The notes under the pieces were generated by a model that saw nothing but the letters and a program-made list of their open reading frames with translations, had not been told where the DNA came from and did no database searches. DNA of 34,644 bases from a virus, in the IMG/VR virus record IMGVR_UViG_3300035698_029396, positions 1 through 34,644 of that record, one strand, 5' to 3'. A program made the position numbers and the translations under genes. Shown here piece after piece: positions 4,903 to 31,394 of the stretch. Numbering within the stretch: position 1 is the first letter of the stretch; each line of letters opens with the position of its first letter.

Positions 4903-6954
4903 ATGTTGTTCCCGTCGCTTGGTCCTCAGTATTACGATGAAAAAGATCGTGGTTTATTATCAAAAATGGAGCAATTTTATACGAGCTCCTTAACTATTAA
5001 TCAGAGTTTTTGGTCAGAAGCTGATATAGACAGTAGATTCTATGTTGGCGATCAATCTATTCACAACAATTATTACATGAATAGTATGTATCCTTTTGGA
5101 AATAACAGGAATAATTTCTTTTTTAACAGAATAAGGCCGGTTATTCAAAACATTACGGGGTATCAAAGACGTAACAGAAAGTCTACTATTTCAGTTCCTG
5201 TAGAAAACAGTGATCAAGACACAGCTGATCAATTTAGCAAAATACTTATGTGGAACGATGAACAAGAGGGAATAAATTACACTATATCAAATGCATTTGA
5301 AGGTGCATTGGTTACTGGTCTTAATTTACTTCAGGTATGGATGGACTACAGGTCTGATCCTTTGTCTGGAAACATAAAAGTTACAAACTGTTCTTATAAT
5401 AGTTTTATGATTGATCCTTTTTTCAAAAAGACAGATCTTTCTGACTGTAATGGTATATGGAAAAGATCATATTTAACTAAGCGTGAATGTATATCATTGT
5501 TACCTCAGTATACTGATCAGATATTAAATTTACCGACTTCATTTAATAACAGAGATGGTAAGTTTCAGTTTATGCCACAGTCTTACGATTATGGGCCCAG
5601 TAATCTATTAACCTATGATGAGTATTACTATAGATCTTATCGTACTCAGTTGATGGTAATTGATCCTAACACTGGTGAAGGTATAGAATGGCAAGGTTCT
5701 GATGAAGATCTTAAAAGATACTTACAGGCTTTTCCTGAATTAACCACGATGAAAAATGAAGTGCCTACAGTAAATTTAGCAATTGTAGTGCAGGGTAAAG
5801 TTCTTATAGATGGTCCGCAAAGTTCAGGACTGGACTGCTATCCTTTTGTTCCTGTGCTCGGTCATTACAATCCGCAACTGGCTGATTTCCCTTGGAGGGT
5901 ACAGGGTGTAGTTAGAGGATTGAGAGATGCTCAATATCTGTATAATAGAAGAAAAGTTATTGAACTTGATATTCTTGAGTCTCAATTAAACTCGGGTCTT
6001 AAGTTAAAAGAAAATGCTTTGGTTAATTTTGAAGATGTTTTCTTGGTAGGTCAGGGAAAACCATTAGTTCTTAAAAAAGATGCGGCTATGACTGATGTTG
6101 AAAGGCTCGCAGCTCCTGATATACCCCAGTCTATGATTCAACTGTCTGATATTCTGGGAAAAGAGATTCAACATCTTTCTGGCGTTAATGAAGAGTTGCT
6201 TGGTTCGGCTATAGATGATAAAGCTGGTATCCTTAGTGCTTTAAGGCAGGGTGCAGGATTAACCACTTTGCAAAAGTTGTTTGATCAGCTTGATGAGTCT
6301 CAAAAGATGCTTGGAAAAATAAGAATAAAGCTTATTCAGAATAATTTCACGCCTGGTAAAGTAAAACGTATTTTACAAGACGAGCCGTCTGGTCAGTTTT
6401 ATGATAAAACGTTTGGTCGTTATGATGCAGCTGTTGAAGAAGGTTTTAATACAACCACACAAAAACAGATGCAATTTGCTCAATTGATTCAACTAAAAGA
6501 GCTTGGTGTTAATATACCAGAATCATCCTTAATTGATGCAGCTACTCTTCAAGACAAGAAGAAGCTTATTGAAACTATTGAAGCAGCAAGTAAGCAGCAA
6601 CAAGAGATGCAACAGTTGCAAATGAAAGTTCAAATGCAAGAATTGCAGTCACGATCAGTATTGTCACAAGCTACTGCACATGCTCAGCAAGGACTTGGAG
6701 ATGAACGCTACTCACGTATCCCAGAAAACAGAGCATTAGCTGAAGAGCGTATTTCTGAAGCACAGAAGGATAGAGAGCTTGGGTTCCTTCACCTTATGAA
6801 AGCAATAAAAGAGATACAATCAATCGATATTTCTCAAGTGCAAAAGTTGTTAGAGTTAGGTAATATGGTAAAAGATAGAAAAAATTTACCTCAATTACCT
6901 GAACAGGCTCAGTTTACTCCTGAAACTGGCGGTAATATTAGTCCATTAACATAG
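4903..6954 (+). CDS. Portal protein
   Basis: 683 aa, immediately downstream of terL, with a Gln-rich coiled-coil C-terminus. The call rests on size and synteny. Confidence 0.7.
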   Translation: MLFPSLGPQYYDEKDRGLLSKMEQFYTSSLTINQSFWSEADIDSRFYVGDQSIHNNYYMNSMYPFGNNRNNFFFNRIRPVIQNITGYQRRNRKSTISVPVENSDQDTADQFSKILMWNDEQEGINYTISNAFEGALVTGLNLLQVWMDYRSDPLSGNIKVTNCSYNSFMIDPFFKKTDLSDCNGIWKRSYLTKRECISLLPQYTDQILNLPTSFNNRDGKFQFMPQSYDYGPSNLLTYDEYYYRSYRTQLMVIDPNTGEGIEWQGSDEDLKRYLQAFPELTTMKNEVPTVNLAIVVQGKVLIDGPQSSGLDCYPFVPVLGHYNPQLADFPWRVQGVVRGLRDAQYLYNRRKVIELDILESQLNSGLKLKENALVNFEDVFLVGQGKPLVLKKDAAMTDVERLAAPDIPQSMIQLSDILGKEIQHLSGVNEELLGSAIDDKAGILSALRQGAGLTTLQKLFDQLDESQKMLGKIRIKLIQNNFTPGKVKRILQDEPSGQFYDKTFGRYDAAVEEGFNTTTQKQMQFAQLIQLKELGVNIPESSLIDAATLQDKKKLIETIEAASKQQQEMQQLQMKVQMQELQSRSVLSQATAHAQQGLGDERYSRIPENRALAEERISEAQKDRELGFLHLMKAIKEIQSIDISQVQKLLELGNMVKDRKNLPQLPEQAQFTPETGGNISPLT

Positions 6955-6961
6955 GCTGTTT

Positions 6962-7036
6962 TCCTCGGTAGCTCAGTGGTAGAGCGTACGGCTTTTAACC
7001 GTCTAGTCGGAGGTTCAATTCCTTCCCGGGGAACCA
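6962..7036 (+). tRNA. tRNA-Lys (anticodon UUU), CCA encoded
   Basis: Hand-folded cloverleaf. Acceptor TCCTCGG/CCGGGGA; D arm GCTC-AGTGGTA-GAGC; anticodon arm TACGG-CTTTTAA-CCGTC with one mismatch; T arm GGAGG-TTCAATT-CCTTC; discriminator A followed by CCA. Confidence 0.85.
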
Positions 7037-7114: not shown

Positions 7115-7537
7115 ATGAATCATCCTAATGCATATACATTTCATGCGGGCTATACTTTTGGAACCTATATTATTATTTCTGATGAAAAGTTTAGAGATAA
7201 ATGGCGCCATGTAAAATATCTCTGTGAGTGCATATGTGGTCATAAGGCATATGTCCGTACCCACAATATTGTTAATCCTTCCAAGAGATGTCTACGTTGC
7301 CATAATAAACTAGTAAACACTAAGCATGGGTTTCGTAGATGTAAGGCTACTCCTACCTATACTGCGTGGGTATCTATGAAACAAAAGAGTAAAAAGAAAA
7401 ATATATATCTTGATCCAAGATGGAATAAGTTTGAGTTATTTCTAGAAGATCTGGGTGAGAAGCCTACAAAGAAGTCATTACAAAGAGATGATATTGATAA
7501 TGGGTTTTATAAAGAAAACTGTAATTGGATAGGATGA
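7115..7537 (+). CDS. Zn-ribbon protein of a widespread phage family often annotated as HNH/homing-endonuclease-like; function unproven
   Basis: CxCxC...CxxC cluster (CECICGH...CLRCH), then TPTYTAWVSMKQ...DPRWNKFELFLEDLGEKP...SLQRDDIDNGFYKENCNW. This matches the common T..Y.SW..M...RW..F..F..DMG.rP...SLDR...G.Y...NC.W motif. The gene is freestanding between two tRNA genes. Confidence 0.5.
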   Translation: MNHPNAYTFHAGYTFGTYIIISDEKFRDKWRHVKYLCECICGHKAYVRTHNIVNPSKRCLRCHNKLVNTKHGFRRCKATPTYTAWVSMKQKSKKKNIYLDPRWNKFELFLEDLGEKPTKKSLQRDDIDNGFYKENCNWIG

Positions 7538-7660: not shown

Positions 7661-7737
7661 GCCCCTGTAGTTTATGTGGTTAGAACATTGCCCTTTCAAG
7701 GCAAAGAACGCGGGCTCGAATCCCGGCGGGGGCGCCA
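7661..7737 (+). tRNA. tRNA-Glu (anticodon UUC), CCA encoded
   Basis: Hand-folded cloverleaf. Acceptor GCCCCTG/CGGGGGC; D arm GTTT-ATGTGGTTA-GAAC; anticodon arm TTGCC-CTTTCAA-GGCAA; T arm GCGGG-CTCGAAT-CCCGG with a G:G mismatch at the base; discriminator G followed by CCA. Confidence 0.8.
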
Positions 7738-10174: not shown

Positions 10175-10486
10175 ATGAATACTACTACTACATCGCTGTT
10201 ATCAGCACCGGTGCAAGAGTCGTTTAGTTATAAGTTACTATCGGTTCCTACACCAAACTTTATTCATAAAATTCCAGCTGTCATGAAACAGATGCCTTCT
10301 AAAGGTGGTCGCGTTTTGCGTATGCGTAGATATAATGCGCTTCCTAGTTCGTTGGTGCCTTTAGGCAATAGTGGTATTATGCCACCTCCAACAGAATTAA
10401 CAGCTGTTGATATCGATGCAAAAATGGATTTTTATGGGCAATTTATAAAAATCAATGAGCAAGTTACCTTGCAAAATCAGGACCCT
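10175..10486 (+). CDS. Major capsid protein, exon 1 (HK97-fold, N4-gp56-like type)
   Basis: 104 codons ending ...VTLQNQDP. The unspliced reading frame runs into the intron and stops at 10549. Confidence 0.8.
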
Positions 10487-10764
10487 AAAATGAATGGGGT
10501 CGTTAAACTTTCTCTGATTGACTTGGAAGCCGAAGTAGCTATTAGCTAACCGGTGACAGGGCCGAAGGACTTTTAAAATGATGTTCATGAAAACGAAAAT
10601 TCTAGTTCACGGTGAACGACTAAGTGAGAAAGCGAACTTAGCAATTAAATTGCTTTGTTTGATGCGATAGTCTGAACTCCGTTCGATAAGACGGAGAGGG
10701 AGATCCGAAGAGGTTTCCCCGCCAGAAATGGTCAGTAGGCATAAGCTGAAAGTAACAGAAATTG
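10487..10764 (+). ncRNA. Group I self-splicing intron (ORF-less, 278 nt) in the major capsid gene
   Basis: P1: exon GACCCU (10481-10486) pairs with GGGGUC (10496-10501), with a U.G wobble at the splice site. P10: GAAU (10492-10495) pairs with exon-2 GUUC (10765-10768). There is an R-like element at 10605-10626 and an S-like element at 10661-10677. P7 is GACUA/UAGUC. The P8 hairpin is at 10640-10654 and the P9 hairpin at 10677-10696. The terminal G is at 10764. Confidence 0.8.
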
Positions 10765-11400
10765 GTTCTTAATGAGGCAGCGATCCGTTTAGGTGTAGCT
10801 TTGCGTCAAACTGAAGATGAACTTACTAGAAACATGCTTGCATCTACTGCATCTGTTGTAGATTGCGTTGGTGGTGTTAATGGTGATTCGCCTACAGAAA
10901 TTACACGATCCGATGTTAATGAAGTAGTAAGATCATTACTTGATAATGATGCTTATACCATCTTAGATAACATTGAAGGTGATGATAAATTTGGTACAGC
11001 ACCTGTGCGAGATGCATATTTTGCATTGTGTTCTACTAAATTGACTTGTGATTTGGATAATGTAAATGGGTTTATTCAAAAAAACCAATATCCATCTCCT
11101 ATGGATGCGCTTAGATCTGAGTGGGGTGCCATTGGTAACCTTAGATTCTTAATTTCATCTATTGGTTCAGTAAGTCCAAATGCTTCAGTAAATGGTAATG
11201 ATATCTTTAATATTTTCTGTGTTGGAATGGAAGCATATGCCTGCATTGAGCAAGATAATTATTCTGCACAGTTTATTTATCGTCCGCCTATTTATGATTC
11301 TGCATTAGCATTAAATTGCACAGTAGGGTACAAATTTGCTGAAGTGCCAAGGATTTTGAACGATTTGTGGGTCTTAAACTTGCGCTGTACGGCTGCATAA
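10765..11400 (+). CDS. Major capsid protein, exon 2
   Basis: 211 codons beginning VLNEAAIRLGVALRQTEDELTRNML. Joined to exon 1 they give a continuous 315-aa protein with the DP-VL-E...G...ED.LTR pattern typical of N4-gp56-type capsid proteins. Confidence 0.8.
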   Translation, partial: VLNEAAIRLGVALRQTEDELTRNMLASTASVVDCVGGVNGDSPTEITRSDVNEVVRSLLDNDAYTILDNIEGDDKFGTAPVRDAYFALCSTKLTCDLDNVNGFIQKNQYPSPMDALRSEWGAIGNLRFLISSIGSVSPNASVNGNDIFNIFCVGMEAYACIEQDNYSAQFIYRPPIYDSALALNCTVGYKFAEVPRILNDLWVLNLRCTAA

Positions 11401-30948: not shown

Positions 30949-31022
30949 TGTGTTACCTCTATTATTTAGATAGTGTTATATAAGCTTTATGCTTACTGTC
31001 CTTTACGGGATGAGTTATTTTT

Positions 31023-31050
31023 CCCGGGGGTGGCTCACCCCTTCCCCGGG
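31023..31050. other. Isolated GC-rich hairpin in AT-rich intergenic DNA
   Basis: CCCGGGG (31023-31029) pairs with CCCCGGG (31044-31050). An alternative or nested fold is GGGGTG-GCT-CACCCC (31027-31041). No correctly placed T-run follows it on either strand. Confidence 0.5.
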
Positions 31051-31076
31051 TATAGCAGCGTCTTGCCATACTACGC

Positions 31077-31394
31077 CTAAGACGTTTTTAGTAATTTCCA
31101 TACTTCTATAGTATTTTTGCGATATTGTTCTAAGTCTAGAGCAAACAGTTCAGGAATAGCACTATATTCAATGGACCCACGTCGCTCTTCCTTGACCAGC
31201 ATAAATTCACGCACAGTAAGTGTTTTATTATGCGCCATACTTATTAATGCTTTTTTTATTTTAGCCTCTTGCGCTACAAGTTCTTTTCTATTTTGTGAGA
31301 TATCCCACAGTTGTTGAGCTAAGGTATAACAGTCTATAACATGAGACTCGGTTGCTACAAAATTATCAGTAGCTGTATTGTTTGAAACGTACAT
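31077..31394 (-). CDS. Hypothetical protein (leftward early gene)
   Basis: 105-aa ORF with a GGAGAA ribosome-binding site, divergent from the HTH gene. Confidence 0.5.
   Translation of the reverse strand: MYVSNNTATDNFVATESHVIDCYTLAQQLWDISQNRKELVAQEAKIKKALISMAHNKTLTVREFMLVKEERRGSIEYSAIPELFALDLEQYRKNTIEVWKLLKTS

Follow-up and report, generated by a model that had tools for sequence, protein, structure and literature searches.

A compact, ORF-less group I intron very probably splits the N4-gp56-type major capsid gene of an uncultured phage

The window analysed here is the whole 34,644-nt stretch of IMG/VR record IMGVR_UViG_3300035698_029396, from an uncultured phage of ~35 kb with a P22-like portal. 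Its positions 10487-10764 can be assigned with high confidence to a compact group I intron of 278 nt, without ORF and without P2, located in a major capsid gene of the N4-gp56/TIGR04387 type. A first-pass annotation made from the sequence alone had claimed that an ORF-less group I intron divides this gene, and protein homology, covariation, the match of guide to exons and a permutation test of P10 all support the claim. Capsid-gene and ORF-less group I introns have already been documented in phages (LittleE, BAKA, Tuc2009 and the Jug phages), and because elements of this kind are known, this single copy is of modest importance. Of more interest is the lineage, which is missed by standard annotation and is widespread in the capsid genes of related phages.

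In the proposed process, the capsid gene would be transcribed into one pre-mRNA, in which the intron would fold into a P4-P6 domain and a P3-P8 domain, with P7 closing the P3/P7 pseudoknot and with a brace at the periphery formed by the hairpins P9, P9.1, P9.2 and P9.3. P1 and P10 would both arise from the same internal guide, 5'-GAAUGGGGUC-3' (10492-10501), which would pair with the last six bases of exon 1 in P1 and with the four bases that open exon 2 in P10. Splicing would begin when a free guanosine, bound at P7, attacks after U10486; then G10764 would replace the guanosine and the 3'-OH of U10486 would attack after G10764. Exon ligation (...CAG GAC CCU^GUU CUU AAU..., the caret marking the junction here and below) would give the mRNA for a capsid protein of 315 aa. 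Without splicing, translation would stop after a 124-aa fragment, which would make splicing a requirement for virion production. Self-splicing catalysis by the intron is presumed.

The interrupted capsid gene and its restored protein

The ORF list placed a 124-aa ORF at 10175-10549 with its stop codon at 10547-10549, and a second ORF which extended to 11400. Together with TIGR04387 it confirmed that the capsid reading frame breaks off at this stop and resumes at 10765, as had been described. Exon 1 (10175-10486, plus strand) contained 104 codons, the last of which were CAG GAC CCU; it covered TIGR04387 positions 1-103 and ended on the invariant residues D103 and P104. Exon 2 (10765-11400, plus strand) contained 211 codons and the stop, started with GUU CUU AAU (V L N) and covered TIGR04387 positions 102-323. 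It had neither an ATG nor a Shine-Dalgarno sequence of its own; AAGGA or AGGAG motifs were present upstream of 10175 and 11416 and absent upstream of 10765.

Excision of 10487-10764, which joins 10486 to 10765, restored the predicted protein of 315 aa. It matched TIGR04387 end to end in a single stretch (positions 1-323 of 324) with 125.8 bits, where 60 bits is the curated cutoff, and this full-length match places it in the N4-gp56 family of major capsid proteins. Capsid homologs numbered 2457, and 120 uninterrupted ones (75-81% identity, mostly 315 aa) aligned with the joined protein without any gap; 0 of these 120 had a gap or an insertion at the junction. D103, P104, L106 and N107 were invariant in the 120 homologs and V105 was kept in 116 of them. 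The junction falls within the continuously conserved block NEQVTLQNQDP^VLNEAA, where the 120 homologs have the unbroken DP-VL segment that the first-pass annotation had expected. Both exons were free of frameshifts and stops, were 81% identical to intact homologs and retained all invariant residues.

When every in-frame excision around the element was scored with a profile of intron-less capsids, removal of the 278 nt came out as the unique best (186.5 bits). The junction site in its intron-less form reads CAGGACCCU^GUUCUUAAU. An alternative in-frame 3' site at G10758, which would add two residues (KL), was ruled out since no homolog has an insertion there. The longest open frame failed to separate G10758 from G10764, and G10764 was chosen because the homologs decide between them. 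The homology-defined junction is unique, with the terminal G at 10764 as predicted.

The sense strand of 10487-10764 held no ORF besides a 20-codon read-through of exon 1. An endonuclease ORF, the mark of a mobile intron bearing a homing endonuclease, is absent from this strand of the intron, in agreement with the first description. When gene and intron were searched by blastn against GenBank phages, no close relative was obtained and MW202674 was the one informative match. For annotation, the two capsid fragments should be corrected to one essential gene whose expression would depend on RNA splicing; GenBank relatives have a spurious "hypothetical protein" annotated between the capsid fragments. 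Cluster look-ups of the relatives returned the capsid name only.

Fold, proposed splice sites and family-wide covariation

All 13 helices proposed for the 278-nt insert (10487-10764) were intact without a mismatch, and an unconstrained MFE fold recovered P1, P3, P4-P6, P8, P9 and P9.1 (z = -2.39). All elements lie on the plus strand. The P1 hairpin (10481-10501) pairs exon GACCCU (10481-86) with guide GGGGUC (10496-501) through 6 standard pairs, with the previously noted wobble U10486.G10496 as the last one. The adjacent GAAU (10492-10495) is the P10 half of the guide and pairs with GUUC (10765-10768) at the very start of exon 2, so that one guide serves both exons as had been proposed. Only 6 nt separate P1 from P3, and P2 is absent.

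P3 is formed by CUUUCUC (10508-10514) and GAGAAAG (10626-10632), with 7/7 pairs compensatory and 95.4% of the cells paired in the family. The P4-P5-P5a domain (10522-10560) consists of P4 (10522-25 with 10557-60), P5 (10529-32 with 10551-54) and P5a (10536-40 with 10544-48), connected by the A-rich joints J4/5 (GAA) and J5/4 (GA). In the family 99.1% of P4, 84.7% of P5 and 88% of P5a were paired, with compensatory changes in all three. P6-P6a (10561-10613) includes P6 (10561-64 with 10610-13), P6a (10567-71 with 10604-08) and a terminal loop of 32 nt, which exceeds that of most relatives; in one relative (L112) a C-G pair is changed to G-C and another C-G to U-A.

The 'R' element (10614-10625) is composed of J6/7 GAAC, the P7 5' strand GACUA (10618-22) and J7/3 AGU; it is nearly invariant in the family and aligned with high posterior to GACUAA of Rfam Intron_gpI. 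The 'S' element (10662-10676) is composed of J8/7 AUGCGA, the P7 3' strand UAGUC (10668-72) and J7/9 UGAA. These elements and their P7 pairing had been recognised before. The core sequences UGAACGACUAAGUG and AUGCGAUAGUCUGAAC were nearly invariant in the family and aligned to the RF00028 consensus with high posterior, as expected of R and S in a group I intron. P7 and P3 together make up the pseudoknot of the core; by analogy, guanosine presumably binds at the G-C end of P7. Between the two elements lies P8 (10633-10661), a two-part hairpin (10633-37 with 10657-61, and 10640-45 with 10649-54, loop UAA), with 11/11 pairs compensatory and 97.8% of the cells paired.

The 3' part starts with the P9 hairpin (10677-10696), in which CUCCGUU pairs with GACGGAG around the loop CGAUAA (6/7 pairs compensatory, 97.7% of the cells paired). 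It is followed by P9.1 (10698-10719; GGGAGAUC with GGUUUCCC, loop CGAAGA), by P9.2 (10721-10732; GCCA-GAAA-UGGU, a GNRA tetraloop, 4/4 pairs compensatory, 96.7% of the cells paired) and by the mini-hairpin P9.3 (10738-10747; GGC-AUAA-GCU, 95.2% of the cells paired). The family-conserved tail GAAAGUAACAGAAAUUG (10748-10764) ends in G10764, and the 3' splice site comes directly after it. The P8 hairpin at 10640-54 and the P9 hairpin at 10677-96 were part of the first description, to which the outer P8 helix (10633-37 with 10657-61), the hairpins P9.1, P9.2 and P9.3 and the absence of P2 are now added.

In the Michel-Westhof classification, subgroup IA2 (T4/Twort type) is marked by the additional helices P7.1/P7.2, located between P3' and P8. 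In the window intron P3' ends at 10632, P8 starts at 10633 and J7/3 has only 3 nt, so P7.1/P7.2 are absent; P2 is missing as well, and the intron was assigned to no subgroup.

A covariance model made from the single sequence found 140 relatives at E <= 1e-3, to which a second locus set added 29 at E <= 0.01. In 130 distinct relatives 95.3% of the cells paired, 66/68 pairs were compensatory and the covariation score was 0.479 versus 0.04-0.07 in slid controls, in an alignment which was fitted to the model. The P7 pseudoknot was 98.5% paired with compensatory changes in 3/5 pairs and invariant G-C and A-U pairs, a conservation which is inflated because the loci were collected with the P7/J8-7 motif and the alignment was fitted to the model. 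In this model-fitted alignment the family has the P3-P8 and P4-P6 core with the covarying P3/P7 pseudoknot that is characteristic of group I introns. The window copy carried the family consensus base at every strongly conserved core position, and the family model scored it as a full-length member with 197 bits.

The splice sites also agreed with those of a group I intron. P1, with U at exon -1, would define the 5' splice site; across the family all 6 P1 pairs were compensatory, and the last pair was most commonly U.G (82 sequences, against 15 with U-A). Guide and exon paired at 6/6 positions in 17/18 homology-defined introns, with sequences differing between sites. When P10 was examined in the correct register at homology-defined junctions, the mean was 3.0 contiguous pairs versus 1.49 +/- 0.25 after permutation, and 0/20000 permutations were as high. 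In the raw register of the model alignment P10 was unsupported (39-58% paired), because of length variation in the loop of P1 and in the 3' tail. A junction of the form U^...G^ was equal-best in 15/27 gaps defined without an RNA model, where ~2 would be expected by chance, and was in the top tier in 18/26 cases, with an offset from the model's 5' splice site of always 0. The terminal G and the alignment of exon 2 by P10 were thereby found as in group I introns, the latter in the correct register and not in the raw one.

Known phage introns and rival explanations

RF00028 was the Rfam match of the insert with the lowest E-value (16.7 bits, E = 0.082 in a 551-nt search) and aligned P3, P7, P8 and P9, far from its gathering score of 50 bits. 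At the gathering threshold, no Rfam group I call was made in the window or in 16 loci with relatives, and at E <= 1 RF00028 matched none of 10 relatives. The validated T4 introns td (40.3 bits) and nrdB (35.7 bits), used as positive control, also stayed below gathering, so the Rfam negative is no refutation. The Intron_gpI search had been suggested as a check of the intron; taken at the threshold it formally speaks against the intron, but it is a poor test, since the T4 introns fail it too. The gathering criterion of RF00028 does not discriminate for phage introns, and the window intron falls below it. The single group I model of Rfam at its curated threshold misses this whole phage intron lineage in addition to T4 td and nrdB, and for this reason viral metagenomes are likely to contain more split structural genes than are recognised.

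The family model (R2) matched the T4 nrdD intron core with 19.6 bits (E ~4e-4), and its top three matches in 14 kb of T4 DNA were all inside the nrdB and td introns (11.9, 8.4 and 7.8 bits); such scores (8-20 bits) mean little alone because a core-less match of 13.3 bits occurs elsewhere in the window. This second R2 match (30959-31116) was rejected as an intron, as it has only peripheral hairpins and the catalytic core is absent. The T4 introns nrdD (sunY), nrdB and td belong to subgroup IA2, are experimentally self-splicing and interrupt essential phage genes, as the window intron interrupts the essential capsid gene. The window intron would have the group I mechanism in common with them. 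The motif AUAGUCUGRACU (J8/7-P7'-J7/9-P9) followed by a hairpin is common to the window family, T4 nrdD and nrdB, while td has AUAGUCUGCUCU; T4 introns and the window intron are alike under-scored by RF00028. The T4 introns differ in their homing-endonuclease ORFs (I-TevI, I-TevII, I-TevIII), in their length of ~600-1000 nt, in their location in nucleotide-metabolism genes and in P7.1/P7.2, whereas the window intron has no ORF, measures 278 nt, lies in a capsid gene and has no room for these helices.

In mycobacteriophages of Cluster J, a group I intron is located in the major capsid gene of LittleE and in a tail gene of BAKA/Optimus (Pope et al. 2013, PMC3706429). Like that of the window, these introns are in virion structural genes and were found by comparison with uninterrupted homologs (PMC3706429). 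The BAKA intron is ORF-less, measures 265 bp, follows a U as the last base of exon 1 and itself ends in G, and its splicing was confirmed by RT-PCR (PMC3706429), while the capsid intron of LittleE is 819 bp long with an HNH gene (PMC3706429), unlike the ORF-less 278 nt of the window intron. These Cluster J phages are temperate siphoviruses of high-GC Actinobacteria (PMC3706429), and their introns were compared with the window family by description only. The Jug jumbo phages carry many short ORF-less introns in essential genes, with a mean of ~206 nt, which were found with published subgroup covariance models and of which many were confirmed to splice by metatranscriptome reads (PMC12880540). 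These are gut phages of 360-402 kb with introns mainly in terL, nrdD and DNA polymerase genes (PMC12880540), whereas the window lineage belongs to ~35-kb phages and is concentrated in the capsid gene. For several introns in one gene, Staphylococcus phage Twort orf142 with its three group I introns (Landthaler and Shub 1999, as cited in PMC6669764) provides a precedent, compared by description only, for the relatives L173, L123 and L133; the window gene has one.

Other kinds of insert do not fit: the insert has a size, a stop codon in frame and a group I core that rule out a group II intron or an intein, and the guide-exon match argues against a MITE or passive repeat. The insert might be a group I intron by descent which splices only with the help of a phage or host protein in vivo, and this is unlikely. 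Many minimal group I introns rely on protein cofactors, and the small core, the lack of P2, the short P4/P5 and a P5 that is only 84.7% paired in the family would agree with such a need. Peripheral elements such as P9.1-P9.3 and a GNRA loop usually stabilise the core without protein, and here these hairpins are conserved, including the GNRA loop; in addition, phage introns of similar size splice efficiently in vivo (BAKA 265 nt, PMC3706429; Jug ~206 nt, PMC12880540). A dead or non-splicing relic, with the capsid gene a pseudogene of a defective phage genome, seems very improbable. It could be suspected from the sub-threshold Rfam score, from the small number of capsid homologs (only five, all diverged, in the fetched viral contigs) with an intron at the window's site, and from the absence of the exact 124-aa exon-1 product in the contig collection. 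However, decay would hardly leave helices without mismatch, core positions at the family consensus, a guide that matches both local exons exactly, open exons 81% identical to intact homologs with the invariant residues kept, and a full-length family score of 197 bits.

There is only a slight chance that the capsid is made without splicing, either from two polypeptides that assemble or by ribosomal bypass of the 278-nt gap. T4 offers parallels for both, since gene 60 bypasses a coding gap and gp60/gp39 are split genes for two subunits, but the gap of 278 nt far exceeds the 50 nt bypassed in T4, exon 2 lacks an ATG and a Shine-Dalgarno sequence, and the break is within the conserved block around DP^VL. 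Such a capsid would also leave unexplained a structured RNA family whose guide tracks each insertion site. An assembly chimera, in which an intron piece of a co-occurring phage was wrongly joined into the contig, is hardly credible: the window is probably a metagenomic assembly and intron modules are 100% identical between contigs, yet the guide is complementary to the flanking ends of both exons of this gene, the reading frame is restored to the exact base on excision, and independent contigs have introns at the same site.

Occurrence and spread among related phages

The intron family was found at at least 13 sites in the same capsid gene of related phages, with at least 3 introns in some genes. 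Site 104/105, which is occupied in the window, also had an intron in five diverged capsid homologs (L125, L090, L151, L123 and L087), and more than 80 relatives had none there. In L133 the first intron was larger than the model match. More than 160 natural variants of this ribozyme family of ~200-280 nt, with guides matched to many targets, provide material for studying minimal group I folds and the movement of ORF-less introns.

The closest relative of the window intron was at another site with a similar target (GCGCCU^GUUCGU, compared with GACCCU^GUUCUU), and two guide-sequence pairs differ between them, which would be consistent with spread by guide retargeting. Tentatively, the capsid gene could be a hot spot of radiating mini group I introns, P2-less, mostly ORF-less and uncalled by Rfam, that move by guide retargeting resembling reverse splicing and not by homing. 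This would mean at least 13 positions in one gene of ~945 nt, with micro-exons down to ~27 nt. Since the intron has no endonuclease gene, routes other than its own endonuclease were considered, namely recombination during co-infection by relatives, an endonuclease acting in trans, or reverse splicing. The ORF at 7115-7537 matched HNH endonuclease PHROGs and gave no match in Pfam. Its mobilising the intron in trans, as first suggested, is speculation, and nothing links the ORF to the intron.

A block of 46 nt (10694-10739), which spans P9.1 and P9.2, was 100% identical to positions 2924-2969 of another contig (L065), where the intron is at another site and carries a LAGLIDADG ORF. From this block, which the ORF-less window intron has in common with a LAGLIDADG-bearing one, peripheral modules appear to be swapped whole between introns.

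Interruption and restoration of the major capsid gene

The major capsid gene (exons 10175-10486 and 10765-11400) was interrupted by 278 nt at 10487-10764, which very probably represent a splicing-competent group I intron, the splicing being what we infer. The first-pass annotation had read the capsid ORF begun at 10175 as ending at a stop at 10547-10549. This was borne out by the ORF list, which gave a product of 124 aa and a second ORF (10762-11400) in a different frame. Against TIGR04387, the NCBIfam profile of the N4-gp56 family major capsid protein, the first piece covered profile positions 1-103 and the second positions 102-323, and the protein obtained by joining 10486 to 10765 matched positions 1-323 of 324 in a single stretch (125.8 bits, cutoff 60). 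A total of 2457 capsid homologs were found in a large protein database, and the best 120 of these showed 75-81% identity, nearly all being 315 aa long, the length of the joined product. When these 120 were aligned, D103, P104, L106 and N107 were invariant, V105 was present in 116/120, and no gap column existed at the junction. Thus the continuous 315-aa N4-gp56-type protein proposed from the 10486/10765 join was upheld, with an unbroken DP-VL segment. The gene was also uninterrupted at site 104/105 (between P104 and V105) in the 80 best viral-contig loci. Exon 2 had neither a start codon nor a ribosome-binding site of its own, whereas both were present for the genes that begin at 10175 and 11416. 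The split of the capsid gene is real, and excision rebuilds the conserved block exactly.

Every in-frame excision around the element was scored against a profile of intron-less capsids, and the 278-nt excision, bounded by U10486 and G10764, was the sole best solution (186.5 bits). A 3' site at G10758 was also in frame and would add residues KL, but was ruled out because no homolog carried an insertion there. Moving both sites by -1 left the protein identical but broke the U/G rule, while shifts of +1 or -2 altered conserved residues (V105, P104). A single junction satisfies both protein homology and the group I rules.

RNA fold, internal guide and covariation

The element could be folded into P1, P3, P4, P5, P5a, P6, P6a, P7, P8, P9, P9.1, P9.2 and P9.3 with zero mismatches, among which each helix named by the first-pass annotation was present. 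P7 was pseudoknotted with P3, P8 was in two parts, the P9.2 loop was GAAA, and most helices reappeared in the unconstrained MFE fold (z = -2.39). P2 was absent and there was no room for P7.1/P7.2; lacking these helices of the IA2 subgroup, the element does not fit that subgroup. The ORF list showed no ORF on the sense strand of the element beyond the exon-1 read-through, in agreement with the ORF-less intron first described.

More than 119 viral contigs were retrieved in a search for the P7/J8-7 signature. With a covariance model built from the window's single sequence and a hand-drawn structure, 140 matches were obtained at E <= 1e-3, and 29 further ones at E <= 0.01 in a second locus set. 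Covariation was measured on 130 distinct sequences, with slid structures and 500 shuffles as controls, in an alignment fitted to the model and with P7 lying within the motif used to collect the loci. Standard pairs were formed in 95.3% of cells (40-44% when slid), compensatory changes were seen in 66/68 pairs (36-51 when slid), and the covariation score was 0.479 (0.04-0.07 when slid), while 0/500 shuffles attained any of these measures. The P7 pseudoknot, itself part of the collecting motif, was 98.5% paired, with compensatory changes in 3/5 pairs and an invariant G-C/A-U end. Among the sequences, 82 ended P1 with U.G and 15 with U-A.

Many of the motif-found contigs held homologs of the window's capsid gene broken at differing points, so splice junctions could be defined by protein homology alone. 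A junction with U before the 5' site and G before the 3' site was in the top tier in 18/26 informative cases, each exactly at the 5' splice site predicted by the model. When the RNA model was left out, it was equal-best in 15/27 gaps, where about 2 would be expected by chance, and 7 of the remaining 12 were placed 1 nt away from it. With the homology-defined junctions, pairing between the last six exon bases and a guide segment was perfect in 17/18 introns, and the paired sequences vary between sites. P10 in its proper register had a mean of 3.0 contiguous pairs, compared with 1.49 +/- 0.25 when exon 2 was permuted among introns (0/20000 permutations equalled the observed mean). One internal guide aligning both exons had been proposed earlier, and such behaviour is the hallmark of group I introns. 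The first observation is confirmed, and its group I interpretation is supported.

Database models and known phage introns

Rfam Intron_gpI (RF00028) did not call the capsid element at the curated threshold, and Rfam detected no relative, either in 16 loci at that threshold or in 10 at E <= 1. In a local Rfam search RF00028 had the lowest E-value among three weak matches (16.7 bits, E = 0.082), aligning P3, P7, P8 and P9. The td and nrdB introns of phage T4 are experimentally validated. Used as a control (T4 134000-148000), they scored 40.3 and 35.7 bits with RF00028, both below the gathering score of 50, so threshold-based Rfam annotation would overlook them too. The first-pass annotation had named the lack of a covariance-model hit as a refutation; no hit exists at the Rfam threshold, yet this reasoning is invalid for phage introns, since td and nrdB also fall short.

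R2, the covariance model of the intron family, gave a weak match (19.6 bits, E about 4e-4) to the core of the T4 nrdD intron, and with filters off its three best matches in 14 kb of T4 DNA, also weak, were all inside the nrdB and td introns. The T4 nrdD and nrdB introns have in common with the capsid intron the motif AUAGUCUGRACU followed by a hairpin. The relation to T4 introns is suggestive only, given these weak scores and the 13.3 bits still reached by R2 at window 30959-31116 (-), where the catalytic core is absent. This intergenic match, downstream of the minus-strand ORF 31077-31394, comprised only hairpins resembling P1 and P9.1 and a CAGUA-GC...GC tail, and is either a piece of an intron or a coincidental match.

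An 819-bp group I intron with an HNH gene was experimentally shown in the major capsid gene of mycobacteriophage LittleE (PMC3706429), where the capsid-gene intron of lactococcal phage Tuc2009 is cited. The BAKA tail gene intron described there, validated and ORF-less, measures 265 bp, follows U at -1 and ends in G. Jug jumbo phages contain many small ORF-less introns (mean about 206 nt), with metatranscriptome support (PMC12880540). Since capsid-gene and ORF-less group I introns of phages are already documented, the element belongs to an established type, and its value lies in a lineage uncalled by standard tools and in one capsid gene family being colonised with unusual density.

Genome context and spread of the family

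Besides the capsid protein, the window encoded a large terminase, a P22-like portal and tail proteins, and it looks like most of a ~35 kb phage genome, for which no close relative was found among GenBank phages. The capsid intron was its only full family member. The ORF at 7115-7537, just downstream of the portal gene and between tRNA genes 6962-7033 and 7661-7734, had been called endonuclease-like, which fits its match to HNH endonuclease PHROGs (phrog_374, 3.2e-17); Pfam gave no match, and no tie between this ORF and the capsid intron was found.

N4-gp56-type capsid genes hosted 41/119 in-silico-spliced family members. Introns were seen at no fewer than 13 sites within this gene. Other interrupted genes encoded P22-type coat (PF11651), class II ribonucleotide reductase, family A DNA polymerase, tape-measure-like proteins and another capsid-like protein (L082, L094, L099, L142, L152 and others; L115; L119). 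Site 104/105 was also occupied in five contigs (L125, L090, L151, L123, L087), with proteins 49-80% identical. Several contigs (L173, L123, L133, L194, L092) carried three or more introns per capsid gene, and in these and L111 two to four or more same-family introns per gene were observed. In L133, introns 5703-6108 and 6119-6496 flanked a micro-exon of ~27 nt (residues 173-181). Family copies only a few nt apart, with no exon room left by the protein alignment, were seen in L123 (6278-6488 / 6495-6680) and L111 (2252-2455 / 2512-2712); such pairs may represent introns in tandem, introns nested in one another (twintrons) or introns into which something has inserted.

The intron most similar to that of the window was L112 1566-1806 (-) (196 bits), at residues 184/185 (A-P/V-R), an observation that also takes in L173. 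Its target is GCGCCU/GUUCGU and that of the window GACCCU/GUUCUU, the guides differing at two pairs, and the window's own site 184 (GCACCU/GUGCGA; cf. 11002-11013) was empty. The pattern is consistent with movement between similar CCU/GU targets. A larger intron at about capsid codon 13 (L065 2385-3009, also L040 and L037) held a LAGLIDADG endonuclease ORF (PF00961, E = 8.5e-5). Over 46 nt its 3' part (L065 2924-2969) and window 10694-10739 (P9.1-P9.2) were 100% identical, though the capsid proteins were only about 73% identical, which suggests that peripheral modules were exchanged between introns.

A family member was also found in a deposited freshwater podovirus (GenBank MW202674.1, 16569-18084; 128.6 bits), where it broke a 'P22 coat protein' gene into two CDSs. 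No intron is annotated there in the record, and a spurious 'hypothetical protein' (UOF80274.1) was called within it.
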